IMG/VR virus record: IMGVR_UViG_3300008261_000125
Location: 1 to 64,000 of that record
Source of the DNA: a virus
Strand: one strand, 5' to 3'
DNA length: 64,000 bases
Each line of letters begins with the position of its first letter. Within the stretch, counting starts at the first letter, position 1. This document shows, one piece after another, positions 11,170-64,000 of the stretch. Under the pieces are notes generated by a model. It was given only the letters and a program-made list of their open reading frames with translations, did not search any database and had not been told where the DNA came from. The translations under genes and the position numbers were made by a program.

Positions 11170-13467
11170 AGCAGAAGAGCTTGCAAAAGCTAGTAAAGAT
11201 CTAATGTTAAAAGAAAGTTTTTATGGTCTATTTCTTATAATGTTAAATAAACAATGGAGTACTAAAGTTCCTACAGCAGGTGTAAGTAGAAATGGTGTAA
11301 ATTTTCAATTATATCTTAATGAAGAATTTTGGCAGAGTCTTACTCCAGATCAACATATAGGTTTACTGAAACATGAGCTCAAAGGGCTCCTTGTACAGTA
11401 ATGTACATGTAAAAAGGTTTAAATTGCAGGGAGTTCCTTAAGTTTTATCTACTAACTGATCATAGTAATATAGATCAAGGCACTGCTAACTACAGTGGTA
11501 TAGTAAAAATGATAAAAATTGGATAATCTGCAGCCAAATCTCTTGAATAATTAAAGAATTAGTGGTATATTGCAACATAATACTTTGCATATGACTACTG
11601 AAAAAGAAAAACAGCTAATAAACTATTATATAATGCAGAAACTATCTGCTGATAAAATAGCTAATCTTATGTGTATAAACAGAAAAACTGTATATGCTAC
11701 TTTAAAAAAGAATAATATAAAAGCAAGAACTATAGCTCAAGCAGCTATGAAATATTCTTGTAATGAAAACTTTTTTGAATTAATTGATACAGAAGAAAAA
11801 GCCTACTGGTTAGGTGCTTTATATGCTGATGGTAATGTTTCACAGAACAAAACAGGATCTGGCAAGATATTTTTATCTTCTAAAGATTATAAATGGATTG
11901 AAAGATTTATGAGAAGTATAGAATCTACAAACAAGCCTACTAGAGAGTTTCATAAAAAGTATCAAAAAGAGATATGGAAAGCTCAGATAACATCTACAAA
12001 GATGTTTAATGATCTAGTAAGATTGGGTTGTATACCTAGAAAATCAATGATAATAACCTTTCCTGAGTTACCTTCAAATTTAATATCCCATTTTATCAGA
12101 GGATATTTTGATGGTGATGGTACAGTAGGGATATATCAGAATCTTAAAAAGCATAACTGGAAGATCTTAAAATCTGGAATTTGTTCAGGTTCTGAGCTCT
12201 TTTTGAGAGAACTGGTGACATATTTACCAACAAAAAATAAGAATGTAGTTTTTAATAAGTCCTTGTATGTTATTCAGCTTTCTTTAAAAGACAGCATTTT
12301 GTTACATGATTATATGTATAAAAATGCTAATGTTTTTCTTATAAGAAAAGCTGTGATATTTACAACTTATTTAAGCAAATATTATTCAAGAGAGAGGTTC
12401 AACGACTATAATAACCTACCCTAATGGGGTAAAGGAATAGTCTGATCTTACATGAAAATGTAAGCTAACACAAATGATTGCATATAGCATTTTTTCATGT
12501 TACAGATTTTGAACATTTGACAAATAAAGAGATTGCTAACATAGCAATGGATATTGAAATTAATCAATATATTGATGAGAAATTTCTTCCTCCTGGACCA
12601 TGCTTACTAAGCACTTTCCCAGAGCTTAATTTAGAACCTAAGAAAGGTGCTAATTATTATTATGAGAAATTATTACAAGCATCTCAAAATCCAGAACAAT
12701 GTCCTAACTTAGATAAAATGCTTGCTAATGCTCCAGGTTATCAGGTTAAAGTAAGTATTGATGGTGATGGTGATATTGAAGTATCTGTTCCTGACCATAG
12801 TTCATGGGAAGAGTTTGAAGATTTAGATGAAGCTACTAAAAAGCTAATCAAATCACAAACAGAGCATATATTAAAAGAAGTTGCAGATCAAGTAGAAAAA
12901 TCTCGTGGACATGTTCCAGGAGAATTAAAAGAAATCCTAGAGAAAATTTCTCAACTAGAACCTCCTAAATTTAATTGGAGAGGATATTTAAGAAGATTTG
13001 TAGGAGGAAGTATAAAGACATTCACAAGAATGTCAAGGCACAAGCCTAATTTTAGATTTATTGAAAACCCAGGTTTAAAACACAAAAACAGAAGAAAAAT
13101 CCTGGTAGCTGTAGATACTTCAGGTTCAGTTAGTACTAATGAACTTAAAGAATTTCTTAATGAAATAAACCACATTCAGAGAACTGGTACAGAAGTTATC
13201 ATTGTTCAATGTGATTCAGCAATATCATATATTGGTAAGTTTAATCCTAAAGAGGACTTTAAAATACATGGTAGAGGAGGCACTAGCTTTCATCCTGTTA
13301 CTGATTATTATGATGAGAATCATAAAAAGTTTAATTGTTTGATTTATTTAACTGATGGTGAAGCATCTGCACCTGAAAAGTGTAAAGGTCCAGTATTATG
13401 GGTTATATCAAGTCAATCAAGAGAACTTAATCCAGACTTGAAAGGTCTACAAATTCAATTAAATTAA
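11156..13467 (+). CDS. HExxH metallopeptidase-like plus vWA protein (DUF2201-like), spliced 11156-11379 + 12477-13467 (404 aa)
   Basis: Splicing restores LKHELLHIAFFH; NIAMDIEINQ; vWA motifs VAVDTSGSV, GRGGTSF and YLTDGE. Confidence 0.9.
11380..12476 (+). mobile_element. group I self-splicing intron (1097 nt) with a homing endonuclease
   Basis: P1 GAGCU-CAAA-GGGCUC with a U.G splice pair at 11379; P4 TTGCAGG/TCTGCAG; P3 AGGTT/AACCT; P7 GACTAT (12404)/ATAGTC (12437); P8; P9 CTTACAT-GAAA-ATGTAAG; terminal G at 12476; exons join in frame. Confidence 0.93.
11591..12424 (+). CDS. intron-encoded double-motif LAGLIDADG homing endonuclease with an N-terminal HTH
   Basis: AYWLGALYADGNV and HFIRGYFDGDGTV; HTH LSADKIANLMCINRKTVY; TTG 11570 is an alternative start. 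Confidence 0.9.
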   Translation: MTTEKEKQLINYYIMQKLSADKIANLMCINRKTVYATLKKNNIKARTIAQAAMKYSCNENFFELIDTEEKAYWLGALYADGNVSQNKTGSGKIFLSSKDYKWIERFMRSIESTNKPTREFHKKYQKEIWKAQITSTKMFNDLVRLGCIPRKSMIITFPELPSNLISHFIRGYFDGDGTVGIYQNLKKHNWKILKSGICSGSELFLRELVTYLPTKNKNVVFNKSLYVIQLSLKDSILLHDYMYKNANVFLIRKAVIFTTYLSKYYSRERFNDYNNLP

Positions 13468-51721: not shown

Positions 51722-53392
51722 TTAATCCCAGTTATGCAAAGGTTTACGTGAACTTGATGTTTTAACTTCTTCAACATCAGTTACAGCTTTAGCTGCAGGT
51801 TTTTTTATAATTTTTACATTTTCAACAACAGGTTTAGCTACAGGAGTTTTTCTAATATTAGTTACAACATTCTTTGTAGTTACTTTTGTTTTTGGAGTTA
51901 TTTTATTAACTTTTTTACTATTTAATGCATTAGGATGTTGAATAGCTTTTTCAGCTTCTTCTCTTAATATTTTATTTTGTAATTGAAGATTTTTAATTTC
52001 TTTATCTTTTTTTTGTTCTTGACCATATCCTTGTAAAGATCTTGTTCCAATATTAACAACAAATCCAGGAGGCATTTTTTCAGCAATTTTTGGAGCATTT
52101 TCTATAACATAGTCAATACCTTTTTTACCATATTTATTAATAGCATCTATACCAGCTTCACCATATTTTTGGACTAGCTCGTATCCTTTTGTACCATATT
52201 TTTGTAAAAATTTTCCTACTTCAGGGCCATACTTTAATGCTGCTTGACCTATTTGTTTAGCATACTGAACAGGTGCAGTATAGGCTTTTGCACCAAACCA
52301 AGTTGTAGGATCAGCAGCAACATCTGTATAAATGTTTCCTGTACTTTCCCATTCACCTGTTAATAAATTATTTACACCATATAATGGAGCATTTAACATA
52401 TTGGCTGCATAATCTATAACACCTTCTGAATTTGCTGGATTTAATTTAGCAACAAATTGATTAAGTTTTTTCTTACTTGGATTTTCTACTACACCTTTTC
52501 CTGATTTAGGTGGTGGAGCAAATTCATACATATCTCCTGACCATCTTTTCCCTACTTTTTCAGCGTAATCTTCTATAGATTTAAGATCAAAATAACCATG
52601 TTCTTGTTTAAGATTACCTTCTTCATCAAATCTATCACCAGAACCACTTACCCATTCAGACTCTTCAGCAATATTTAATTTAGGTTTACTTTTTCTAAAC
52701 TTATCTCTTTCTGCATATGTTTTACCATAATTTTCATTAATTAGTTTATTATTATTAGTATATTGATCTAAGAGATATTTAGGTATTTTTTCACCTGATT
52801 CATTATATTGCCCAAATTGTTTTAGTAAATTTCTTTCTTTAGTTTCTAAAATCTCTAAAGAAGGTATATAACTTTTTTTGGCTCCACCTTTTTGTTTTGT
52901 ATCAAACTGAGATATCATATTTCCACCATATCTAGCTTCACCTGTATCAGCATCTGGTTCTTCTTCTTGAGACTGAGTAGGTAAATAGCTAGAAGGATCA
53001 ATGTCATTCTCAATGATATATGGCATAGCAATAGCAGGTATACCTTGAGGGAAACCTTTCATTGATTCTTGAATTAAAGCAAGTTTAGCTAACTTTAAAT
53101 TGTAGTTAGATATCATTGCTTCTGCAGTTTTTCTTTGTAAATCTTCAGAATTAGGATCAGCAAGTATTTGTCTGAACTTATTAATATCAAACTTCTTAGC
53201 TATTTCAGCTGGAGTATATCCTGCTTTTTTAGGAACCATTCCAAACTGAGCTATTATAATAGGATCCTTTATTTTCATCTTAGCTGTATCACTAAAAATA
53301 AAAGAGTTATCAGGAAGGTTTAATGGTGTACCACCTTGACTATGTCTTTTACCACCAATCTTAAAATGAGCTGGTAATCCTCCTAAACTCAT
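51722..53392 (-). CDS. virion cargo protein (true start uncertain; frame open to 53449)
   Basis: GKRHSQGG, FIFSD; upstream in-frame KNIAREGANLEAEKGETAV without an ATG. Confidence 0.7.
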   Translation of the reverse strand: MSLGGLPAHFKIGGKRHSQGGTPLNLPDNSFIFSDTAKMKIKDPIIIAQFGMVPKKAGYTPAEIAKKFDINKFRQILADPNSEDLQRKTAEAMISNYNLKLAKLALIQESMKGFPQGIPAIAMPYIIENDIDPSSYLPTQSQEEEPDADTGEARYGGNMISQFDTKQKGGAKKSYIPSLEILETKERNLLKQFGQYNESGEKIPKYLLDQYTNNNKLINENYGKTYAERDKFRKSKPKLNIAEESEWVSGSGDRFDEEGNLKQEHGYFDLKSIEDYAEKVGKRWSGDMYEFAPPPKSGKGVVENPSKKKLNQFVAKLNPANSEGVIDYAANMLNAPLYGVNNLLTGEWESTGNIYTDVAADPTTWFGAKAYTAPVQYAKQIGQAALKYGPEVGKFLQKYGTKGYELVQKYGEAGIDAINKYGKKGIDYVIENAPKIAEKMPPGFVVNIGTRSLQGYGQEQKKDKEIKNLQLQNKILREEAEKAIQHPNALNSKKVNKITPKTKVTTKNVVTNIRKTPVAKPVVENVKIIKKPAAKAVTDVEEVKTSSSRKPLHNWD

Positions 53393-53449
53393 TACAGCTG
53401 TTTCACCTTTTTCTGCTTCAAGATTTGCACCTTCTCTAGCAATATTTTT

Positions 53450-56400
53450 TTAATAGCGTTGTACTGTGTATCCTAATTTTTGTAATCTATCAATCTCATC
53501 TTCATCAATATCTGCTTCATAATACTCATCATCTTCATCTGAGGAACCTCCCATAGCATAACCACCATATCTCATTGCTGGTTGCATTTGTTCTTGCTCA
53601 GGTTGTTGTTGTTCAGACATTTGTAATTGGTTAATTACAGTATCAATTATTTCAGAAGCTTGTTCTTCAGGTAAACCCATTTCAACAAGTTGTTCTAAAA
53701 TCTGTTCTGATTCAGCACCTTGTTGTAACATTTGTGCAACACCTTGCATGATTTGTTGTTCTCTACCATCTTGTTGTTGCATACCTCCATCTTGCATAAA
53801 GCCACCATAAGCTGCTACAGATTGTCCATGAAATTGTACAGGTGTATGATCCCGTGATCTTAACCTACCTGAATTAATTTCAGTATCACCTTGACTTATT
53901 GCATTTTCTGGAGTTTTTATTTTTGCATTATCTGCTACTGTAGATGCTTTAAGATTTCTTTTATTAGGTGCTACCTCTGATATTTGTTCTAAACCACTTG
54001 AAATCATATCTGCTCCGGTAATTTCCCAATTAGCCATAGCCTCTTGGTTAAATTTAGGTTTACTCTTTTCAGTTATTTCAACTTGTTTTTCATCTCTACC
54101 CATACCTTTCATTTCAATATTTTTATGTTGTAACCCAACTGATTCGGGTGTAGAGTATGCTGGTTGAGAAGCACCTTGATAAGATATATTTGAAGGTGCT
54201 GCACCTGGAGCATTACCAGATGGTTGAAAAGGAGAACCTTGATTAGAAAATAAAATAGGATTAGAAGATACTCCTAAATTACCAGTTGAAGATTGAACAC
54301 CAACTTGAGCTTTTGCTAATCCTCCATATTCTTTTTGTCTAGCTCTATTTTTAAATTTTTTAAGTATTTCTGCATCTAATGGATTTTTACTATCTAATAC
54401 CATTAATGTATCTGATGTAGGGAAAACTTTTGCTATATCATCATAAGAAGCTTCTGCTACATTAACACATCCATAAGAAGTACATCTCATGTTAGGATTT
54501 TGAGAGTTTAATTTTTTCATCCTTTCTACAAATACAGGATCTTTAGGATTAAATGCATTATCTGAATAGACTCTATGAAAACCTAAATCATTAGCAGCAG
54601 GAGCAGGTTGACCATAAGCAGATATAGGATTCATATCTCTTGTTTTTCCTTTATAAGCTTTTTTAATATAATTATAATATGAACCTGGTTTACCTAGACT
54701 TCCATCATCTTCCTCAAGAACCATTGTTTTTAAATCAGGGTGTGTTAAAGCAGGTTTTCCTAAAGTATAATAACCAACTGGAGTAGCTCTTAATGATGGG
54801 TTATTTGCTAATTGTATTAAATTATAAGGATTATAATTAGATTCAACATTTGAACCAGTTAATACAGGAAATGAACCTGCTTGTCCTTTGTCTCCAATAT
54901 AATAAGCTTGATTAGTTCTTTTATCAACTACTACTCCAGATTGAGGGGCTTTTCTTTTATCTACTTTATTTTGAGTTAATTTTTTAGCAGATGGACCAAA
55001 AGGATTTTGATAAATATGGTTTAAGTTATTAGTTACTGCAGGCATTGGAGAACTGCTTTTAACATTTGATTTTTCTGGTAATGTTCTTGGAGCAGGAACT
55101 GCTTTAACAGGAGTCTTTACTCCTTTTGTAGGTTTAGTTTCTGATTTAACTTTACTTACATTTTCTTTATTTACAACTTTTGGTTTATTATCAGATGTAT
55201 TTCTATAAGAAATTTTAGTAGGATTAGCAACATCATTCAATATATTTGCTAAATTAACTTCTGGTTCTTCTTGTTGCATTTGAAGTACTTTTGCTTGAAT
55301 AGCATTCATAATCTCAGGGTGATATGCTTCATCATTATTTTCATATGCTTCATCATTATTTTCAAAAGCATTACCATGATTAAATGGGTTCATCATCATC
55401 TCAACAGTCTGACCTTGAGGTCCTATTCTTGATGATTTAAATCCTCCATCTTGGTAGAATCCACCATATCTTTGTATTCTTGGGCCAGATTGAGGAATCA
55501 TTGCTTCTTTTTGGAAATTATAATTTGTTTCTACATTATTTACTGGATTAGCAGGGTTATTCTGATAAGCATTTATTTCATCCATTACTTGATCTTCATC
55601 AATATCTTTATATCCAAAATTATAATGACCTTGAACTGGTATATTATTTTGAACTGGTGGAGTGTATTGAGAATAAGAAGGATTTAACATATCATTTGCA
55701 TACTGTTCAAAATCCATATCTTTATAATTCTCTCTTTGTCTAGGTAAAGATTGTAATTTATTTTTTAATTCAGCTGCTCTTCTTTCTGGCATATCTTCTA
55801 CAGTATGCACTGCAGGGAATCCTTCAGTAAATCCTCTTGGTTGTACTTGTATAGGATCACCTTTATATTCACTATATGGAGTTTGATCTTTATAACCAAA
55901 TTTCATTTTAGTTTTACTCCATGGTCCAAAATGTCTATGACTAAACTCTCTAAGATTACTACTAGGGTTGTTAGCTAATTTCTTTAAAGCTTCTACATCA
56001 CTAGAAGAAATTGAATGTTTATATCCATAGTTCATTGGAAAATACCTCATACCATATCCTTGGTTATAGTAATGAGCTGGATAACCATATTGTTGAGGAG
56101 CATAGCCATAAGGATAATAATCTCTTTTTGGTTGTTTTTGTGACTCTTGATATTGAGATATTATTTGATCTAATAACTTTTCTCTTTCTGCTGCTTTTTT
56201 ATTAACCTCAGTTTCTTTAGTATCTTTTGTTTCAATACCTTCTTGTGCTTTAACTTCTTTAACTTTAGTTTTATCTTTAGTACCCATGGTGTTAAATACA
56301 TCCATAGTTGAACTACCTAAGTTAGCAGCTGCTTGACTTAATCCTGCTTGACCTTGATTAATGTTTTGTTGTAACATTTGTTGGTAAGCTTGATTTTGAG

Positions 56401-57745
56401 GATTAAGTTGTGGACCACCCATTTGCTTGTATTGTTCAAGCATGCTGTTTCCTTCTTCCTCTACTAATGAATTATGTAAATTAGTTTTAATAGCATTATC
56501 AAATTCTTCTCTTCTTTTACCTGGATAGTCTGTAGCATTACCTCCTTGCATTACTGTATCTCCACCTTTAGAGAATAGTTTCTTTTTAGCTTTCTTTAGG
56601 TTGTTTATTAAGCTGTAGAAGGATCCACCTTTCTCAAACTCATTACCACCTTCTTGAAATACAGGATACTCATCCATATTAGATTGGTCTAACATTCCAC
56701 CATATTCAGTATTAGGAAATGCACCATAGTTCATAGGAGAAGCAACATCACCTCCATCATCCATATATCCACCACAATTCATACATGGCATTTCATTAGC
56801 ACCATTAGGTAAACCTCCACCATAAGCAAAACCAGTAGAACCAGCCATTGTAATAGGATTATCTGTTGCTGAACCAATTGGTGTATTAATTCTTGTTTGT
56901 TTTAATGTACCTTCAGCACCAGGAGCACCTTGTATAAAATTAGCTACATAGTCTCCTTTATCAGTATATGATTTAGCAGGATCAATTTCTTGCCCTGTCT
57001 TTTTATCAAAGTATCTTCTTGTAGGATTTGCATAACCAGAATTAACATCAGGATACATATATGAATCATAATTTTGACTTTGATTACCTGGAGATGAAAA
57101 CCATTTTCTATCTATTTTATCTTGATCTTTTAAAGGAGTTGGTTGAGGTTTAGAAATAGAAGTTGCAGGAGTTGTTTGAGCTGTTTCAGTATAAACTGGT
57201 TTATAATATTGTTCAAAATCTTTAGCAGCATCTTTAGATATATGACCAGCTTCAACTAATGATTGAGGACTAACTCCAGATTGTAATCTACTTATCATTG
57301 ATTGCTTCCAATCACCACTTGTACCAGAACCACTTCCAGGACTACTAATAGCTTTATCAGCTTTCTTATCATAGAATGTTTTACTTCCTACAGAACCTAA
57401 CATATTATATCCTGGTTCTACAGTAGATACTTTAGTAGCACCTCTAGGTTCTTCTTTTAATACAGGAGGATTTGGATTATTCATCCCTCCTGGTTCAAAA
57501 TACCCACCATAAGCAAAATTACCAAATGGTATATTTAAATTACCATATGTAGGATCTCCAAAACTGAAGAACTCATCAGCAGTAGGTTGTCCATTGTGAG
57601 GAGCACCACTTAGTGATCCACCATGTTTCATTTGCTTATAACTTTCCCAATCTTCTTTAGTTGGAAACTCTTTATAAAAAGCAGCTTTGCCTTCTGGGGT
57701 ATTTGGAAACCCTGCTTCTGCTAAAATTTCATCTATCTTGCTCAT
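53450..57745 (-). CDS. Gly-Gly-punctuated cargo polyprotein with an L,D-transpeptidase (YkuD) domain
   Basis: About 20 xxxGG motifs; VVVDKRTN...TPVGYY...GFHRV...TSYGCVN (about 54340-54955); ATG 57745. Confidence 0.8.
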   Translation of the reverse strand: MSKIDEILAEAGFPNTPEGKAAFYKEFPTKEDWESYKQMKHGGSLSGAPHNGQPTADEFFSFGDPTYGNLNIPFGNFAYGGYFEPGGMNNPNPPVLKEEPRGATKVSTVEPGYNMLGSVGSKTFYDKKADKAISSPGSGSGTSGDWKQSMISRLQSGVSPQSLVEAGHISKDAAKDFEQYYKPVYTETAQTTPATSISKPQPTPLKDQDKIDRKWFSSPGNQSQNYDSYMYPDVNSGYANPTRRYFDKKTGQEIDPAKSYTDKGDYVANFIQGAPGAEGTLKQTRINTPIGSATDNPITMAGSTGFAYGGGLPNGANEMPCMNCGGYMDDGGDVASPMNYGAFPNTEYGGMLDQSNMDEYPVFQEGGNEFEKGGSFYSLINNLKKAKKKLFSKGGDTVMQGGNATDYPGKRREEFDNAIKTNLHNSLVEEEGNSMLEQYKQMGGPQLNPQNQAYQQMLQQNINQGQAGLSQAAANLGSSTMDVFNTMGTKDKTKVKEVKAQEGIETKDTKETEVNKKAAEREKLLDQIISQYQESQKQPKRDYYPYGYAPQQYGYPAHYYNQGYGMRYFPMNYGYKHSISSSDVEALKKLANNPSSNLREFSHRHFGPWSKTKMKFGYKDQTPYSEYKGDPIQVQPRGFTEGFPAVHTVEDMPERRAAELKNKLQSLPRQRENYKDMDFEQYANDMLNPSYSQYTPPVQNNIPVQGHYNFGYKDIDEDQVMDEINAYQNNPANPVNNVETNYNFQKEAMIPQSGPRIQRYGGFYQDGGFKSSRIGPQGQTVEMMMNPFNHGNAFENNDEAYENNDEAYHPEIMNAIQAKVLQMQQEEPEVNLANILNDVANPTKISYRNTSDNKPKVVNKENVSKVKSETKPTKGVKTPVKAVPAPRTLPEKSNVKSSSPMPAVTNNLNHIYQNPFGPSAKKLTQNKVDKRKAPQSGVVVDKRTNQAYYIGDKGQAGSFPVLTGSNVESNYNPYNLIQLANNPSLRATPVGYYTLGKPALTHPDLKTMVLEEDDGSLGKPGSYYNYIKKAYKGKTRDMNPISAYGQPAPAANDLGFHRVYSDNAFNPKDPVFVERMKKLNSQNPNMRCTSYGCVNVAEASYDDIAKVFPTSDTLMVLDSKNPLDAEILKKFKNRARQKEYGGLAKAQVGVQSSTGNLGVSSNPILFSNQGSPFQPSGNAPGAAPSNISYQGASQPAYSTPESVGLQHKNIEMKGMGRDEKQVEITEKSKPKFNQEAMANWEITGADMISSGLEQISEVAPNKRNLKASTVADNAKIKTPENAISQGDTEINSGRLRSRDHTPVQFHGQSVAAYGGFMQDGGMQQQDGREQQIMQGVAQMLQQGAESEQILEQLVEMGLPEEQASEIIDTVINQLQMSEQQQPEQEQMQPAMRYGGYAMGGSSDEDDEYYEADIDEDEIDRLQKLGYTVQRY
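55322..55363. repeat. 21-bp perfect tandem duplication (ENNDEAY x2)
   Basis: atatgcttcatcattattttc twice in a row. Confidence 0.9.
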
Positions 57746-57748
57746 ATA

Positions 57749-57756
57749 CAAATATA
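57749..57756 (-). promoter_or_regulatory. TATATTTG -7 element 3 nt before ATG 57745
   Basis: Same geometry as the elements at 2392 and 3858. Confidence 0.5.
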
Positions 57757-57765
57757 TTGAATTTA

Positions 57766-60189
57766 TTAAATATCATCAAGCCAATTAGTAGATTCCCCAC
57801 CATCTTGGTACTTTAAATTTGGTTTATATCTTCTTTTACCAGAAGGTCCATAAATAGTTTCATTTCTTAACATAATATCATTTATGCTAGTTTGAATATT
57901 TTTAGATGTAAATCTTTTTAAACCTTTTTGACCACCTTTTTTAAACTCATCTTCATACTCATCCAACCATTCTCCACCTTCTTCTTTCTTCATTCTTTTT
58001 TTAGCTTGATTTAAGAGTTTTAAATCTTTAGGTCTTTTACTATCAATTACCATAAGTGTATCAGGATTAGGAAACATCTTATTTATTTTATCATAAGAAT
58101 TATCTCCAACATTTACACAACCATAAGAACCACATCTTAATTTAGGATCTGCTTGTCTTAATAATTCTAATCTTTTATTATACTCAACATCATCAGCATT
58201 ATAAGCATCATCTGCATAAAGTCTGTGAAAAGCTAAATTAGCAGCACTAGGAGCTGCTTGCCCATATGCAGGAATTGGATTTAAATATCTAATTTTAGAT
58301 TTATAATTAACATCTTCATCATCACCTTTAACAGGAGTTAATTGTTTTTCTAAATTATAATAACCTACTGGAGTACCTCTTAATTTACGGTTTTGTGCTA
58401 GTTGCTCTACAGTATATGGGTTTACATTTAAATCAGGGTTAGCACCTGTCATTACATTAAAAGAAAGTGTTTTACCATTATCTCCTACTGCATAAGCAAT
58501 GTTAGTTCTTTTATCAACTACTACTCCAGATTGAGGTATCTTTCTATTGTCTTTATAAACTATAGGATATTTTTCTCCTGAAGCTAATCTGTTATCATAA
58601 TATTCAGGATGATAACCACCTCCTACTTGATACTCATCTAACCATCCTCCATTTTTAAAAGTTTTTGATAAACTTAAACCCTGATAATCTGGAGAAATAT
58701 TTGCCCCTATAGATATATCATTATTTAATTGATAATTTGCACCCACATATGGATTTATAATACCTGTTTGTTCAAATGTTTTAATAGGTATATAATTTCC
58801 AATATTACCTGTTAGTTTTCCTTTACCAAAAGATAATCCTAAATCTTTATATGATTCTCCTAACCAGTTCATATTTTCATTCCATCCTTCTAATAATTTA
58901 TTTTCTGAAAGGTTAAATTTTGGAATAATATCTATTTGTCTTGGTTTATTATGTATATTATTTATACCTCCTTTTTGCATATGAGTATGAGTCTTAGTGT
59001 TCTGTCCACCAAAAGGATAATGACCTGTTATGTTAGGTAGAGAAGGATCTCCACCATAAGCTACTGTATTTAAGTCTTTAGTTTGATTATTTTTAGCTAA
59101 AGTATTAAGCATATCAATAATGGTATCATCATCATAATAAAATCTAAGATCAGAAATAGGTAGTTTAATAGATTTATTATCAAGTATAGATTTATTTACT
59201 TTTTGACCAGGCTTTAAATTAAGAGTTCTTCTAATATCCATTATTCTAGGATACATACCATCTTTATCTAAATATTTTTTTTGTTTTTCAAACTCGCTAT
59301 AAATACCAGGATATTTTTGTTTTGCTTTATCAAAAGAATCATAGACTTTATTATAATTATCATCAAAATTATAATCTCCATACATCTCTACAAATTTTTT
59401 ATCAGAATTTTGTTTCTTATCTAAATAGTTGCTCAATATAACATCCTCCATAGTTTTTTGCAAAGGGCCTGCACCATGTGTTTGTTCATGAGTAATTACT
59501 CCTGGATTATTAAAAGTATTAACCATTGATACATGGTAATTAGGTATATAAACACCAAGTTCTCCAGGATCACCTGAAAAATAAGGATTACTTGAAGAAA
59601 TATTACTAGGTGTTTTCCATCCTTGTAAAGAGTTATTATATTCTATATCATTTTGACTAACATCAGCTTTTTTTACTAACTCTCTACTAAACATTGGTAA
59701 AGCATTAAGTTTGTTTATAACTTCTTTTGTTAAAATTTTTGGATTTATATCATTAGTAAGAATATTTGACTTTAAGTTTTTACTTAATCTTTTTTGTGTT
59801 TCTGGATGCTGCAACCAATTGACTAAAAAAGGATCTACATCAGGTGCCATCTTATATGTACTTTGTACATCATCTGTATTATTCCACCAGTCACTTATAG
59901 GATTACCTTTTTGCTTACCTTTCTGAGCCATAGGTATTTCAGTAACATACTGTCCTGGAAACTGATAGTCCATACCAGGATACATCATCTGACCATAACC
60001 TAAGTCATCTTCTCCATATACAGGGTAATTTACACCCTGCATTGTTATATCATTAGAAGGAATTTTAGTTACTTGTCCAGGGTATTTCCACTGACCTAAG
60101 TTAGTATATTGTACATCATCCTTATATGGATCTGTTTTACCTTTTGGTTTAACTATGTACTCATTTCTAGGTATCTTATTCTGTTTCAT
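57766..60189 (-). CDS. Gly-Gly-punctuated cargo polyprotein with zincin-like and L,D-transpeptidase domains
   Basis: THEQTHG (59476-59490); VVVDKRTN...AFHRL...GSYGCVN (about 57990-58540); WLDEY repeats. Confidence 0.8.
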   Translation of the reverse strand: MKQNKIPRNEYIVKPKGKTDPYKDDVQYTNLGQWKYPGQVTKIPSNDITMQGVNYPVYGEDDLGYGQMMYPGMDYQFPGQYVTEIPMAQKGKQKGNPISDWWNNTDDVQSTYKMAPDVDPFLVNWLQHPETQKRLSKNLKSNILTNDINPKILTKEVINKLNALPMFSRELVKKADVSQNDIEYNNSLQGWKTPSNISSSNPYFSGDPGELGVYIPNYHVSMVNTFNNPGVITHEQTHGAGPLQKTMEDVILSNYLDKKQNSDKKFVEMYGDYNFDDNYNKVYDSFDKAKQKYPGIYSEFEKQKKYLDKDGMYPRIMDIRRTLNLKPGQKVNKSILDNKSIKLPISDLRFYYDDDTIIDMLNTLAKNNQTKDLNTVAYGGDPSLPNITGHYPFGGQNTKTHTHMQKGGINNIHNKPRQIDIIPKFNLSENKLLEGWNENMNWLGESYKDLGLSFGKGKLTGNIGNYIPIKTFEQTGIINPYVGANYQLNNDISIGANISPDYQGLSLSKTFKNGGWLDEYQVGGGYHPEYYDNRLASGEKYPIVYKDNRKIPQSGVVVDKRTNIAYAVGDNGKTLSFNVMTGANPDLNVNPYTVEQLAQNRKLRGTPVGYYNLEKQLTPVKGDDEDVNYKSKIRYLNPIPAYGQAAPSAANLAFHRLYADDAYNADDVEYNKRLELLRQADPKLRCGSYGCVNVGDNSYDKINKMFPNPDTLMVIDSKRPKDLKLLNQAKKRMKKEEGGEWLDEYEDEFKKGGQKGLKRFTSKNIQTSINDIMLRNETIYGPSGKRRYKPNLKYQDGGESTNWLDDI

Positions 60190-63100
60190 TATCTTGGAGA
60201 ATTAAGGTTCTTAGTATTAGCTATCATTACCAACATTTTGTAATTCATAGATTGGTTTAACACAACTGCTTTTCTTAATAAAACAGAAGTAGTATAATGT
60301 CTGAATTTTTTTCTTTGAAATGGAGCTTTGTTATAATCTAGATTAAAAGTATTTAATACTCTATGGTATCCATTAGCACCTGTGTTCCAAATAGGTCTTT
60401 GAGCAAATCCAGGAATAGTTGGGTTATAATATTCCCCTCTATCTTTAGTAGTATCCCAGAATTGATTGAATCTATATTTGTTTTCTTCCTTAGAGAATAG
60501 AACATTTATGTTAGTTGGATTGATGATTGGATACTGAAGTATTGCAGTTGGATTCTGTTTAGGATTAAGAACTAACTTCAATAATCCTGAAGTTTGTTCA
60601 GTATTATATATAATAGCTTCATTAAAATTATAATCCAATACATGGAATCTATCATAACAGTTTGGTGCATATTTGTATGCTTCCATAATATATTCAATAC
60701 TTCTTAAAGATGTAACATCTTGAGCAGTATTAACCATAAACTCTACTTCAAATGGTTGATCAATATTGTAATAGTTACAATATAAATCACATCTTTGATT
60801 ATGAATCCATATACCTCTAAGATCATTAGGGTTAGTAGTCATGAAAGTATTTTTACCAGGAAGTGTTAATGATGGATGCCAATCATGGTACCCAATCCAA
60901 CCATCAGTTTTAGGATCATAACTTATAGTCCATGATGCATCATCAAAGTATAATTGCCATAAAGTATCTACAGGATCACCTAGTTTAAATAGTAATTGTG
61001 TAGAAAGTACTTTGAATACATTTGAACTACCAGTGTATTGTATTAAGTTTTTAAACTCAGGTTTGAGTTTGTAATCCTTCTTACTAAAGTATAATATACC
61101 ATCTTGATTATTATACATAGATTGACAACCAATACCAATAACAGGGTTATCAATAAGTTCAAAATCAGGAAAGTCTTTTGTTAATACATAAGGTAAGTAT
61201 TGAGCAAACCACCATTTCATATTCATGTTGGATACCTCTTTAATACCACCTTGTAAAGAGAATACTTTACCTTGGTTTTGACTAATCCAATACAATCCTG
61301 CTGGAGTATTTATTACACTTAATCTATTTTGACAAGATGCATACTCATGAGAACTATCTACATTAATAAGTGCTTGCATTGGTTGAGAGAATAATCCTCC
61401 ATCACCAATAGTAAGTTTAGTTCCTAAACCTGTTTCTAATTGATCTGTTCCTTGAAACTGAACTGGACTAGCAGCATCAAAGAATATCATAGCACCACTT
61501 TTATTTACTGGTTTAATACATGTTACTACATTGTCAAAATCATTATAGTTACTCGGTAGGAAGACCAACCATCCATCCTTTAAACTTTCATATTGAGCAG
61601 GTAAAGAATAAACAGCTCTTGTTGGTTTATATACATAACATGTTTCAGCAATATATGGATCATAACTAATAGGTTGACTACTAGCCCATGATACATAATT
61701 AGAAAACATTTTAGATATACTTAATGAAAAATCATATTTATAATAGTTACCTGATTTAATAATACTAGTTTTAAATAAATCTTTAGTATCACTTCCTTCA
61801 TATGGATCATAAAACTTTTGTTCTTCTAAAGCACCATAATCTCTATAGGCAGTATTAATTTCACTTTCAACAAAGAAATCTCTTACACCAGATTTAAATA
61901 AATAAAACCATCCTTTTACATCAAACCTAAACGAGTTAGGTGAAAAACCTGAAATTGCAGCATTAAAACCTTCACCATCTAGTACATAATAACTACTAGG
62001 AACAATTGAAGGTTCACTTTGTCCAAAAGTAGCTAATTGTGAAAAAAAACTACTAGTAAAATCACTTGTTTGAAACTGATTAAAGTTAGCCCAATACTTA
62101 GGATAAGGTATCATTACATGCTGCGTGTAATCTAACTGAGCACCATCTGGTTGACCCTCTAACCAATCATAAAAGTATAAGAAAGTATTTTTTTCTGTAT
62201 ATCTGTTTACATAAGTATCACCACCAAATAGTGTAGTTGTAGAAGATCCTGTACTATAACAAGGACTTACAGGTACTTGAACTATATTATTTAATTGACT
62301 ATACTGATTTTTAATTCTAACTTTTAAAGCACCATAATGAGAAGCACATCTGGTTTCAAAAATTTTATTAACCATGTCTTCTACTTTTGTAATATTACTA
62401 GGTTTTATAATACCAGATCTAGAATTATCTCCTGTTGGTACTGGTAGTTTATTAGTTGATATTGTTTCAAATGTAACAGTTCTTTGTCTATATAGATTGT
62501 TTATTTGTAAATTAGGATTTAATGATACTATTTCAGGATTAATATAAAATGCATTATCAATTTCACTTCTAAATGTATTAGCTTTATTTACATTGTCAAA
62601 TTCATTATAAAACCCATGAGAATGGTATCTTAATGCAAAGTCTCTATATCTAATAATTGCTCTAATTAATCTTATAATAGAATCAGTTCCTTCAGAAAAA
62701 TAGTTTAAAAACATTGGTATTTTGTATATTATTCCTGCTCCTCCTAAACCATCTAAATAACCATCAGTTTTATTAACTTCTAAATCTGGTATTGAAGCTG
62801 CTAAAACACCTGAAGCCGACATTGCAGCAGAATAATAAGCTATATTTTTTTGAGTAGCATTTGGAACTAATGGTACTAATGCACCAATTGTATTTGAAGC
62901 TAAGGCTTCATCAGCTAATATTGTTCCTACTAATCCTAAATTTACTCCAGTAACTGGGGGGTTTACTAATAAATAACTTGGTGATAATAACCCACTAGAT
63001 GTACCAGCTGCTAATACATCATTATAATGACCAGATGTAGAAAGAGTGGTGCTAAATTTTTTACTACTTTGTCCTTGAGCTGCTTGAGCTGCTATTACTA

Positions 63101-63998
63101 AACCACCTATAGCTGAAATTATAAAAGATAAATTAGTAATTAGTTTTTCTTTAGGATGTTCTTCAGAATATTCATATTTACCTCTTACACCCCCTTTTAT
63201 TGTACCATAGAGTTTAAATTCTTTAGCAGATAAAAATGGATTATTAAAGTTAGTTTCAGGAGAGTGAAAAGTATAATAAGGATTATCAAAACTAGAACCA
63301 GGTATTGGTATATTAGCATTTATATTTCCATTACTATAAGAAGTTAATGTTGAACTTAAAAATGGATTATTGCCTAAATCATTATATGGATAATTTGGAA
63401 ATAAACCATTTTTTGTACTATTTGGTATAGCATATCTACACATGTTATTAATCATACCTTTGGCAATAATTGTTCTATTACCATTTCTAGTACCTCTTAA
63501 TATTTCATATCCTATAATACCTGGAATAGGTTGACCACTATTATCTACAGGAGGTTTGACTTTTTCAAACTTAACTCCCATTATTCTTATTTTATCTCCA
63601 TTACCACTATTAAATAATACTGTATTTGAACTAGTATTATCTTCAGGAAACTTATGATGTCTTATAGGTTTTCCACATAAATCATAATCATCAATTTGAG
63701 TACTGCTGTAAGGAAAGCTAGTAACTGCTGACCAAGTATGAGCACTTGCATTCCAAATTTGTGGTTTGTTATCTGGGTAGTTTTCACTTGATTGCCAATA
63801 ACCCATATAACCTTCAGCAATGACTACACCACCATCTGGTAAAACATTAGCACCTAAAGGTGGAGGTAATGGAAAAGTAGCAGTTTCAGTAGCTGTATTG
63901 TAAGTTTCAAATACGTATTCATCTCCTTCTAATGCATTACTTGCTCCAAAACTCCAAGCTGAATCTTCTTTAGCAGAAGGTCCACCAGGAATTGAATA
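60189..63998 (-). CDS. large tail structural protein (crAss-like tail stabilization/muzzle type), 5'-truncated by the window
   Basis: Frame stays open to the window edge; beta-rich; PIRHHKFP, FGGDTY and WTISYD...WIGYHDW. Confidence 0.65.
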   Translation of the reverse strand, partial: YSIPGGPSAKEDSAWSFGASNALEGDEYVFETYNTATETATFPLPPPLGANVLPDGGVVIAEGYMGYWQSSENYPDNKPQIWNASAHTWSAVTSFPYSSTQIDDYDLCGKPIRHHKFPEDNTSSNTVLFNSGNGDKIRIMGVKFEKVKPPVDNSGQPIPGIIGYEILRGTRNGNRTIIAKGMINNMCRYAIPNSTKNGLFPNYPYNDLGNNPFLSSTLTSYSNGNINANIPIPGSSFDNPYYTFHSPETNFNNPFLSAKEFKLYGTIKGGVRGKYEYSEEHPKEKLITNLSFIISAIGGLVIAAQAAQGQSSKKFSTTLSTSGHYNDVLAAGTSSGLLSPSYLLVNPPVTGVNLGLVGTILADEALASNTIGALVPLVPNATQKNIAYYSAAMSASGVLAASIPDLEVNKTDGYLDGLGGAGIIYKIPMFLNYFSEGTDSIIRLIRAIIRYRDFALRYHSHGFYNEFDNVNKANTFRSEIDNAFYINPEIVSLNPNLQINNLYRQRTVTFETISTNKLPVPTGDNSRSGIIKPSNITKVEDMVNKIFETRCASHYGALKVRIKNQYSQLNNIVQVPVSPCYSTGSSTTTLFGGDTYVNRYTEKNTFLYFYDWLEGQPDGAQLDYTQHVMIPYPKYWANFNQFQTSDFTSSFFSQLATFGQSEPSIVPSSYYVLDGEGFNAAISGFSPNSFRFDVKGWFYLFKSGVRDFFVESEINTAYRDYGALEEQKFYDPYEGSDTKDLFKTSIIKSGNYYKYDFSLSISKMFSNYVSWASSQPISYDPYIAETCYVYKPTRAVYSLPAQYESLKDGWLVFLPSNYNDFDNVVTCIKPVNKSGAMIFFDAASPVQFQGTDQLETGLGTKLTIGDGGLFSQPMQALINVDSSHEYASCQNRLSVINTPAGLYWISQNQGKVFSLQGGIKEVSNMNMKWWFAQYLPYVLTKDFPDFELIDNPVIGIGCQSMYNNQDGILYFSKKDYKLKPEFKNLIQYTGSSNVFKVLSTQLLFKLGDPVDTLWQLYFDDASWTISYDPKTDGWIGYHDWHPSLTLPGKNTFMTTNPNDLRGIWIHNQRCDLYCNYYNIDQPFEVEFMVNTAQDVTSLRSIEYIMEAYKYAPNCYDRFHVLDYNFNEAIIYNTEQTSGLLKLVLNPKQNPTAILQYPIINPTNINVLFSKEENKYRFNQFWDTTKDRGEYYNPTIPGFAQRPIWNTGANGYHRVLNTFNLDYNKAPFQRKKFRHYTTSVLLRKAVVLNQSMNYKMLVMIANTKNLNSPR

Positions 63999-64000
63999 TG

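Follow-up and report, generated by a model that had tools for sequence, protein, structure and literature searches.

Gene order at the cargo position of a distant crAss-like phage

We analyzed a 64,000-nt stretch of DNA with 30% G+C (the window), which covers positions 1 to 64,000 of the 95.6-kb IMG/VR virus record IMGVR_UViG_3300008261_000125, a record estimated to be 80% complete. Between positions 51,722 and 60,189, three adjacent minus-strand genes encode proteins of 807, 1433 and 556 amino acids (aa), here termed W807, W1433 and W556, in which short peptides of the form aromatic/Met-x-x-Gly-Gly (the GG motif) recur. From its gene content, the window is that of a distant crAss-like phage. 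The gene preceding the three (60189..64000; coordinates are window positions on the minus strand unless stated otherwise) encodes a muzzle protein (PF25731 crAss_MUZ, E = 1.1e-11, 44.1 bits against a cut-off of 27; phrog_37948). It extends beyond the end of the window and anchors the synteny, the cargo-position genes coming next. The remaining genome encodes the crassvirus major capsid protein and tail ring proteins 1 and 2 (PF23898, E = 7e-31; PF25702, E = 7e-24; PF24228, E = 8e-11), and the portal and terminase were identified by PHROG matches.

The minus-strand open reading frames (ORFs) downstream of the muzzle gene encode, in order, 807, 1433, 556, 498, 937, 2044, 3623, 1096 and 1904 aa. 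In Bacteroides phage crAss001, the order is gp44, gp45 (cargo protein C1), gp46 (C2) and then the virion RNA-polymerase proteins (Bayfield et al. 2023, PMC10172136). The W807 gene follows immediately on the muzzle gene in the same orientation, which is the position of gp45 in crAss001, and by this gene order the 807-, 1433- and 556-aa genes occupy the cargo (ejection-protein) position. Because of the synteny, and because distant Cellulophaga relatives have been annotated by mass spectrometry, two or three of these large proteins from a metagenomic record are most likely carried in the particle and injected. This phage is far from any cultured one. Searches of GenBank phages with W807 and W1433 (tblastn) and with the locus (megablast) gave no match. 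Only the muzzle protein connects to known phages (Leptolyngbya, Cellulophaga, Flavobacterium and csAssE-Sib phages; 24-28% identity). The motif is weak or absent in these distant relatives, and their virion proteomics therefore cannot be used for the motif question.

Modular architecture of W807, W1433 and W556

W807 (57766..60189) consists of an N-terminal handle, an HExxH module, a linker, a YkuD-like module and a C-terminal tail. In an AlphaFold model calculated from a 57-sequence alignment, residues 24-89 (59923..60120) form a beta-rich N-terminal domain with predicted local distance difference test (pLDDT) values of 85-95, followed by the peptide PMAQKG. The handle of ~95 aa (residues 1-89 at 59923-60189) is ~85% identical in dozens of metagenomic proteins that are otherwise unrelated in sequence, and it is far more conserved than any payload, making it a candidate plug or anchor domain. 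An ESM Atlas search with residues 1-100 was uninformative. The helical payload module at residues 101-340 (59170..59889; pLDDT 70-94) has HEQTH at residue 234, and the HExxH is kept in 13 of the 13 homologues having that module. We tentatively assign this module as zincin-like; it has no Pfam match, and Foldseek and VIA searches with the whole W807 model returned only generic helical or cupin-like matches below meaningful scores. The disordered linker at residues 367-535 (58585..59091; pLDDT<50) carries VAYGG, YPFGG, MQKGG and FKNGG-WLDEY-QVGGG and includes a conserved island at residues 370-409, with homology break points at 370, 400 and 510. It leads into an L,D-transpeptidase-like module at residues 550-730 (58000..58542; FHRLY ... 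SYGCVN), which is poorly modelled by AlphaFold. A conserved C-terminal frame at residues 735-807 (57769..57987; pLDDT<50) contains KEEGG-EWLDEY and FKKGG, and the protein terminates in YQDGG-ESTNWLDDI.

W1433 (53450..57751) comprises a motif-dense, disordered N-terminal third, a Tyr/Gln/Asn-rich segment, a YkuD domain, a helical domain and an acidic C-terminus. The motif-dense region, residues 41-450 (56402..57631), contains 12 of the 19 GG sites. Our AlphaFold model covers residues 234-1433, with 41-233 outside the model, and residues 234-376, 393-407 and 425-448 have pLDDT<50. The L,D-transpeptidase (YkuD) domain at residues 933-1143 (54323..54955; pLDDT 85-97) matches PF03734 with 24.4 bits against a cut-off of 23.4. 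It contains the strings FHRVY and SYGCVN and is closed by KEYGG-LAKAQVG. The domain match in W1433, together with the catalytic His ... Ser/Thr-x-Gly-Cys motif, supports the assignment of predicted L,D-transpeptidase modules. Judging by 51% protein identity and by the His and Ser-x-Gly-Cys strings found in both, the YkuD-like modules of the two adjacent genes are paralogues; they also form a 209-nt direct repeat, D1 (54754-54962 and 58344-58552, 73% identity). Further downstream in W1433, a small helical domain at residues 1329-1381 (53609..53767; pLDDT about 95) is bracketed by the doublets AAYGGFMQDGG and MRYGGYAMGG. The window proteins thus combine the zincin-like module with two L,D-transpeptidase-like modules, alongside small domains of helical or beta type. 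No transmembrane segments were found in W807, W1433 or W556 (maximum Kyte-Doolittle 19-mer score 0.64).

W1433 also contains a prion-like Tyr/Gly/Gln/Pro-rich stretch at residues about 544-578 (56018-56122; YYPYGYAPQQYGYPAHYYNQGYG...), in which alignment occupancy falls to about 0.1-0.3 at residues 553-564 against 0.6-0.7 on both sides. A perfect tandem 21-nt repeat (55322-55363) encodes ENNDEAY twice in a region of W1433 without homologues.

W556 (51722..53392) begins with a domain containing FKIGG-KRHSQGG-TPLNLP...FSD, which is followed by the linker motifs ARYGG and KQKGG. In two relatives (L001 and L004), this N-terminal domain is fused to a W1433-type protein as one protein. In two others (L002 and L003), the W556-type gene begins about 60 codons earlier. 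In the window, the TAA stop codon of W1433 is in frame with W556, and a conserved block, ANLEAE-x-GET, precedes the first ATG of W556 (53387-53457). Read-through, a non-ATG start, a nonsense mutation of recent date or an error in sequencing could each account for the split between W1433 and W556. On visual inspection, the N-terminal domain of W556 looked like the portal-binding domain of gp45. This proposal was unsupported by hhalign, by a PDB (Protein Data Bank) profile and by Pfam, and we dropped it.

The GG motif is specific to the cargo-position proteins

An initial annotation of the window, made from the DNA alone, listed xxxGG pentapeptides in the three ORFs, and every one of them was found in the translations. 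In the site list, W1433, W807 and W556 contain 19, 8 and 5 GG sites, respectively (nine for W807 in the count made against its model). Two of the five in W556 are linker copies, as had been noted, and the other three lie within the conserved folded domain. To quantify the motif, we scored [FYMW]xxGG and compared the counts with 5000 shuffles per protein. W1433 has 13 copies, while the shuffle mean is 1.43 and 0 of 5000 shuffles reach 13; W807 has 6 (mean 0.70), a count reached by 1 of 5000 shuffles. The 2 copies in W556 (0.36 in shuffles) are not significant. Plain GG is raised only about 1.8-fold over shuffled sequences. Enrichment over the rest of the proteome, which had been proposed as a check, was also observed: 19 motifs occur in 2240 aa, whereas the other 27,864 aa contain 10 (odds ratio 24, p = 3e-15). 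The muzzle, the 498-aa protein, the RNA-polymerase-type giants and the structural module have 0 or 1 copy.

Gly-rich disorder as the sole cause, which the initial annotation had set against its own reading, does not account for the pattern. When residues were shuffled within low-confidence segments, 6 motifs were observed against 0.5 expected in W807 and 9 against 1.1 in W1433. None of 5000 shuffles reached the observed count in either protein, and an 8-12-fold enrichment remained. In the four IMG/VR relatives, the enrichment recurs in the two or three syntenic genes and nowhere else, and 108 homologues of W807 contain 497 motifs where 90 are expected. These results confirm that the motif pattern is real and specific to the cargo-position proteins.

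Grammar and conservation of the motif

We derived the motif grammar from 854 unique GG contexts in the 108 homologues of W807. Position -3 is Tyr in 26%, Met in 11% and Phe in 11% of the contexts, a 3-5-fold enrichment of these three residues. Position -2 is Gln or Lys, and position -1 is often aromatic. The residues after GG are Trp (16-fold enriched), Leu and Asp, then Tyr at +5. Three forms of the motif occur: a doublet, x-Y-G-G-aromatic-x-x-(D/P)-G-G, with GG pairs 6 residues apart; an extended form, aromatic-K/Q-x-G-G-(x)-W-L-D-x-aromatic; and lone aromatic-x-x-G-G copies. A (K/M)-A-Q-x-G element often comes after the motif, which explains the MAQKG, KAQEG and KAQVG variants recorded in the initial annotation.

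In W1433, the doublet corresponds to a direct-repeat family, D2, of five 33-nt copies: AYGG-YFEP-GG-M (57482..57514), AYGGG-LPNGAN (56795..56827), NCGG-YMDD-GG-D (56747..56779), RYGG-FYQD-GG-F (55439..55471) and the reference doublet AYGG-FMQD-GG-M (53780..53812), which lies directly before the small helical domain. At the DNA level these copies share only 62-73% identity, with varying Gly codons, indicating that conservation acts at the protein level. Across homologues, identity at motif positions is 0.70 against 0.32 at other disordered positions in one comparison and 0.59 against 0.29 in the other. From these alignments, the motif positions appear to be under selection at the protein level, being ~2x as conserved as their surroundings.

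The C-termini of the family carry the motif in a fixed form. About 80% of the W807 family end in ...GG(G)WLDxxx, with typical tails ...YKDGGWLDNLD or ...KxGGWLDNLD. The last GG is followed by 5-11 further residues in 88 of the 108 members, and only 2 end at GG itself. Thus, the functional unit extends beyond the GG. The searched literature contained no description of the seam motif, and 'GGWLD' occurs in none of the phage papers searched.

The AAYGGFMQDGG doublet of W1433 contains YGGFM, the Met-enkephalin string (residues 1315-1319; 53795-53809). As it is internal and has no flanking processing signals, we took the identity to be due to chance.

Motifs mark the seams of mosaic proteins

The initial annotation had stated that the motifs lie in linkers and bracket folded modules, and the pLDDT maps of W807 and W1433, both from models of low mean confidence, agree with this. 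All nine GG sites of W807 lie in segments with pLDDT<50 that adjoin confident modules. In W1433 residues 234-1433, the same low values surround 16 of the 17 sites, the exception being KEYGG at 1143, which closes the YkuD domain. Over both models, 25 of 26 GG sites are in low-confidence linkers abutting confident modules, and predicted disorder extends over more than half of either protein.

The motif blocks also coincide with the limits of homology. BLAST alignments of W807 with its homologues start or end mostly at residues 90-99, 370-409, 510 and 730-739; 76 alignments stop at residues 90-99 and 41 begin at residues 730-739. For W1433, the corresponding blocks are at residues 80-89, 300-330 and 1140-1149, with 15 alignments stopping at the last of these. 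In most W807 homologues, similarity is confined to about 95 N-terminal residues (~85% identical) and about 70 C-terminal ones. Their middles differ and contain SLT, LysM, PG_binding_1, ART-PolyVal, His_Phos_1, YkuD or unknown domains. The family consensus can be written as N-terminal handle, YGG ... GG ... GGWLD ... GG, payload, GG ... RGG ... TSKNI ... GGWLDxxx. W807, W1433 and W556 are thus mosaic 'polyvalent' proteins, with interchangeable modules on long disordered linkers, and aromatic/Met-x-x-Gly-Gly forms a conserved short linear motif that marks their module seams and C-terminal ends. Both kinds of protein, cargo and polyvalent, were already known, and the seam motif occurs in no paper searched. 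The contributions made here are a shuffle test within disordered segments, an analysis of break points, statistics on the C-terminal tails and a comparison with 150 C1 representatives.

The motif in cargo protein C1 of crAss001

We compared the pattern with gp45 of crAss001, for which structures are available (PDB 7QOG and related entries). In gp45, residues 425-552 form an ordered, portal-bound domain and a helix at 214-245 binds the tail barrel (Bayfield et al. 2023, PMC10172136). SAYGG at 209 stands just before this helix, NAFGG-WLNTQ-GG occupies residues 425-436, and FAYGG at 562 comes just after the portal-bound domain. The Pfam model crAss_CARG1 (PF25725) starts at residue 424. The doublet stands at the start of the ordered domain, so that in mature particles it belongs to an uninterrupted chain and is where order sets in. 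The structural paper makes no mention of cleavage or of a protease and expects gp45 and gp46 to form a channel (Bayfield et al. 2023, PMC10172136).

The block is not peculiar to crAss001. A word-indexed homologue search with gp45 found only near-identical sequences. An exhaustive search yielded 3934 C1-type proteins, and the 150 best representatives show a 3.8-fold enrichment of the motif. In all 40 segments that we inspected by eye among 149 aligned C1 segments, without a formal tally, GG-x-L-x-T-x-GG stands at the position of the gp45 doublet. A stricter regular expression (aromatic/aliphatic, GG, two hydrophobic residues) matches only 18 of the 149. PF25725 gave no match in the three window proteins or their relatives at E<=1, nor in the six-frame translated genome at E<=10.

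Search for a maturation protease

The adenovirus protease cleaves (M/L/I)xGG, and pS273R of African swine fever virus (ASFV) cleaves core polyproteins at Gly-Gly-X. On this precedent, the initial annotation preferred the inference that a phage maturation protease cuts the three proteins as precursors. Six-frame searches of the genome found no match at E<=1 to PF02902 (C48/Ulp1), PF00770 (C5/adenain), PF03412 (C39), PF04586 (S78), PF03420 (S77) or PF00574 (ClpP). PF02902 and PF04586 were likewise not found in the records of the four relatives, and Pfam and PHROG scans of all ORFs of at least 100 aa revealed no maturation protease. For this virus order, none turned up in the family scans and literature searched. 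The only peptidase-like items were the HExxH module of W807, a DUF2201_N/VWA protein (12478-13467, plus strand) and a weak SprT-like match.

The profile match of the DUF2201_N metallopeptidase-like/VWA gene begins only at model position 69, and a LAGLIDADG-type ORF (11570-12424, plus strand) lies directly upstream of it. A homing endonuclease may have split the gene or displaced its start. Outside the window, in the structural module, a 58-aa ORF (genome positions 80838-81014, minus strand) has 26% Lys+Arg and one motif near its C-terminus, and ends in ...AKMKMGGSKKSC.

Possible functions of the seam motif

With a probability of roughly one half, we favor the reading that the motif stays uncut, serves for docking or as a hinge and, in addition, marks the seams at which modules are exchanged. 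An anchor (aromatic or Met, and Trp-Leu) would sit beside a Gly-Gly hinge on disordered linkers. By analogy with gp45, we infer that such motifs might reversibly dock the cargo chain, which is largely unfolded, at recurring sites within the particle, candidates being the portal wing, the lumen of the tail barrel or muzzle, or neighboring cargo. Docking could hold the modules in register for loading and for ordered N-to-C ejection. Since the same peptide flanks every payload, recombination at the seams could swap, add or remove modules without breaking the frame. The initial annotation had offered a repeated capsid-loading signal as its second option. Docking is the part of it that fits better, and a universal capsid-loading tag does not fit, because the RNA-polymerase-type cargo lacks the motif.

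Several points weigh against the docking or hinge reading. The motif occurs at most once in each of the phage's RNA-polymerase-type cargo proteins (2044, 3623, 1096 and 1904 aa). There is no detectable homology to gp45 (hhalign probability 0.7%, PF25725 absent), so that what the crAss001 structure says about the window proteins is limited to an analogy in motif and in gene position. Overall confidence in the AlphaFold models is low (mean pLDDT 53-55), disorder is read only indirectly from low pLDDT, and MAFFT alignments of such mosaic proteins are rough. The protease screen covered known families only, in a record that is about 80% complete.

The most serious competitor, which we nevertheless consider unlikely, is that the chains are cut after Gly-Gly by an unrecognized phage enzyme, a zincin-like protein of the phage or a host enzyme, so that each module would become a payload of its own, whether before packaging, inside the head or once injected. 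In favor of cleavage, the linkers that carry the sites are exposed and separate the modules, Met-x-Gly-Gly variants agree with the consensus for adenain, and zincin-like candidates are present in the genome (the W807 HExxH, kept in all homologues with the module, the DUF2201_N/VWA protein and the weak SprT-like match). Zincin-like metallopeptidases have been predicted to process polyvalent proteins, phage P1 DdrB being cited as processed (Iyer et al. 2017, PMC5512222). The 58-aa basic ORF, ending ...MKMGGSKKSC, is reminiscent of adenovirus basic core precursors. A single code by which a protease of new fold, one of the conserved zincin/VWA proteins or a host enzyme cuts both the cargo and this small protein is a bolder proposal, and we rate it as somewhat less probable again; if true, phages would have an equivalent of the core maturation of adenovirus and ASFV. 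Set against processing are the lack of any C48, C5, C39, S78, S77 or ClpP match and the prevalence of Tyr or Phe (26% and 11%) at position -3, where Met is less frequent (11%). Cutting doublets 6 residues apart would yield useless hexapeptides. The zincin and YkuD modules are absent from most motif-bearing homologues and so cannot be the general protease of the family. Natural C-termini retain 5-11 residues after GG, with a conserved WLD following it, and the equivalent block of gp45 is uncut in mature virions, in a structural paper that reports no processing. The preferred inference of the initial annotation thus found no support: no maturation protease of the families screened was detected, the termini lie past the GG and the gp45 block is intact. 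The motifs probably remain uncut, and the evidence favors a docking or hinge seam over a protease site. If the motif is cut after all, it points to a missing protease.

The remaining explanations do without cleavage and differ in what the motif would bind, if anything. It might act only after ejection, in the host envelope, by binding peptidoglycan, a periplasmic or membrane host factor, or other copies of itself, thereby positioning wall-acting modules or building a trans-envelope conduit. Such a role would suit the payloads of the family, which are largely cell-wall enzymes and binders (YkuD, SLT, LysM, PG_binding_1), the confinement of the motif to the first-ejected, tail-proximal proteins and its absence from the cytoplasm-bound RNA-polymerase cargo, as well as the channel expected of gp45 and gp46 (Bayfield et al. 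2023, PMC10172136). We doubt it, given that W807, W1433 and W556 have no transmembrane segment, that no similarity to known wall-binding repeats was found in Pfam, that the ART-PolyVal and His_Phos_1 payloads suggest cytoplasmic targets, and that the sole structurally seen copy is bound inside the virion. Less probable than this, in our estimate, are generic cohesive aromatic-Gly stickers in prion-like, low-complexity linkers that would condense unfolded cargo into a dense but fluid state in the cargo zones, with no specific partner. The composition of W1433 (44% Gly, Gln, Asn, Tyr, Pro and Ser, including the Tyr/Gly/Gln-rich stretch at ~544-578) and the predicted disorder of over half of W807 and W1433 would be as expected for such stickers and spacers. 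However, the copies are conserved in place, which generic stickers need not be, and they have specific additional residues (Gln/Lys at -2, Trp-Leu-Asp at +1 to +3, with Trp 16-fold enriched) and a fixed C-terminal location. Finally, it is very improbable that the motif is a functionless by-product, a flexible linker hitch-hiking as microhomology in module shuffling. The coincidence of homology break points with motif blocks in a highly mosaic family is what such hitch-hiking predicts, but copies in the same genome differ in their codons (62-73% DNA identity), so DNA homology is not what is kept. The motif also persists at the extreme C-terminus, where there is no junction, and is conserved from this clade to the C1 proteins of Steigviridae.

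Crassviruses, common in water, are also the most abundant phages of the human gut. The crAss001 structure raised the question of how these phages load and eject protein cargo amounting to megadaltons. As a candidate docking and ordering signal, the seam motif could explain cargo loading, the order of ejection and the free exchange of payloads between phages. Should it suffice for loading, it could serve as a tag for packaging foreign proteins into such particles.

Comparison with known systems

Like gp45, W807 is encoded directly after the muzzle gene. The motifs of gp45, also a long, Gly-rich and largely disordered virion protein, stand at the edges of its ordered segments (209, 427/434 and 562). 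gp45 has a predicted transmembrane helix and no enzyme modules; in the window proteins such a helix is lacking and zincin-like and YkuD modules are present. Nor does gp45 have the C-terminal GGWLD tail seen in the window family.

The pattern shares with adenovirus, pS273R and Ulp1 (clan CE) processing an exposed x-x-G-G between functional parts of virion proteins, with Met at -3 in a minority of sites. It differs in the prevalence of Tyr/Phe at -3, in the doublets, in the conserved residues after GG and in that no such protease was detected. Unlike in Gly-Gly-processed polyproteins, the one copy seen in a structure, that of crAss001 gp45, is uncut.

Encapsulin targeting peptides such as NTGGDLGIRK and DGSLGIGSLKG, which combine Gly hinges with hydrophobic anchors on flexible tails, load cargo by binding an HK97-fold shell from the inside (Altenburg et al. 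2021, PMC7925596) and are a mechanistic precedent for the favored reading. The seam motif similarly has a short Gly hinge with hydrophobic anchors, is flexible and often forms a C-terminal tail (88/108 homologues; tail pLDDT<50). This is a likeness in how the peptides would work only, as there is no sequence relationship. Unlike the encapsulin peptides, the motif is also internal and multi-copy, and it is absent from the RNA polymerase, the largest cargo. Moreover, the encapsulin peptides bind the shell, whereas in crAss001 the partner is the portal and not the capsid protein.

Junction motifs are also known from polymorphic toxins, where VENN of CdiA and DPxGL of Rhs are examples. As in those proteins, a short peptide here stands at the boundary between a constant frame and a variable payload and coincides with recombination break points. 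In contrast to CdiA and Rhs, there is no evidence of autoproteolysis here, a phage particle makes the delivery and each protein has several seams.

A general framework is that of polyvalent proteins, which are virion-delivered, shuffled effectors that include peptidoglycan-attacking domains, ADP-ribosyltransferases and zincin-like peptidases (Iyer, Burroughs, Anand, de Souza and Aravind 2017, PMC5512222). That study describes no Gly-Gly motif, and the words 'glycine', 'linker' and 'crAss' do not occur in it. The window proteins agree with it in combining at least two unrelated enzymatic domains (HExxH and YkuD-like in W807, YkuD and others in W1433), and ART-PolyVal occurs in W807 homologues. 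Unlike the polyvalent proteins of that study, the proteins described here frame their payloads between a conserved N-terminal handle and a conserved C-terminal tail.

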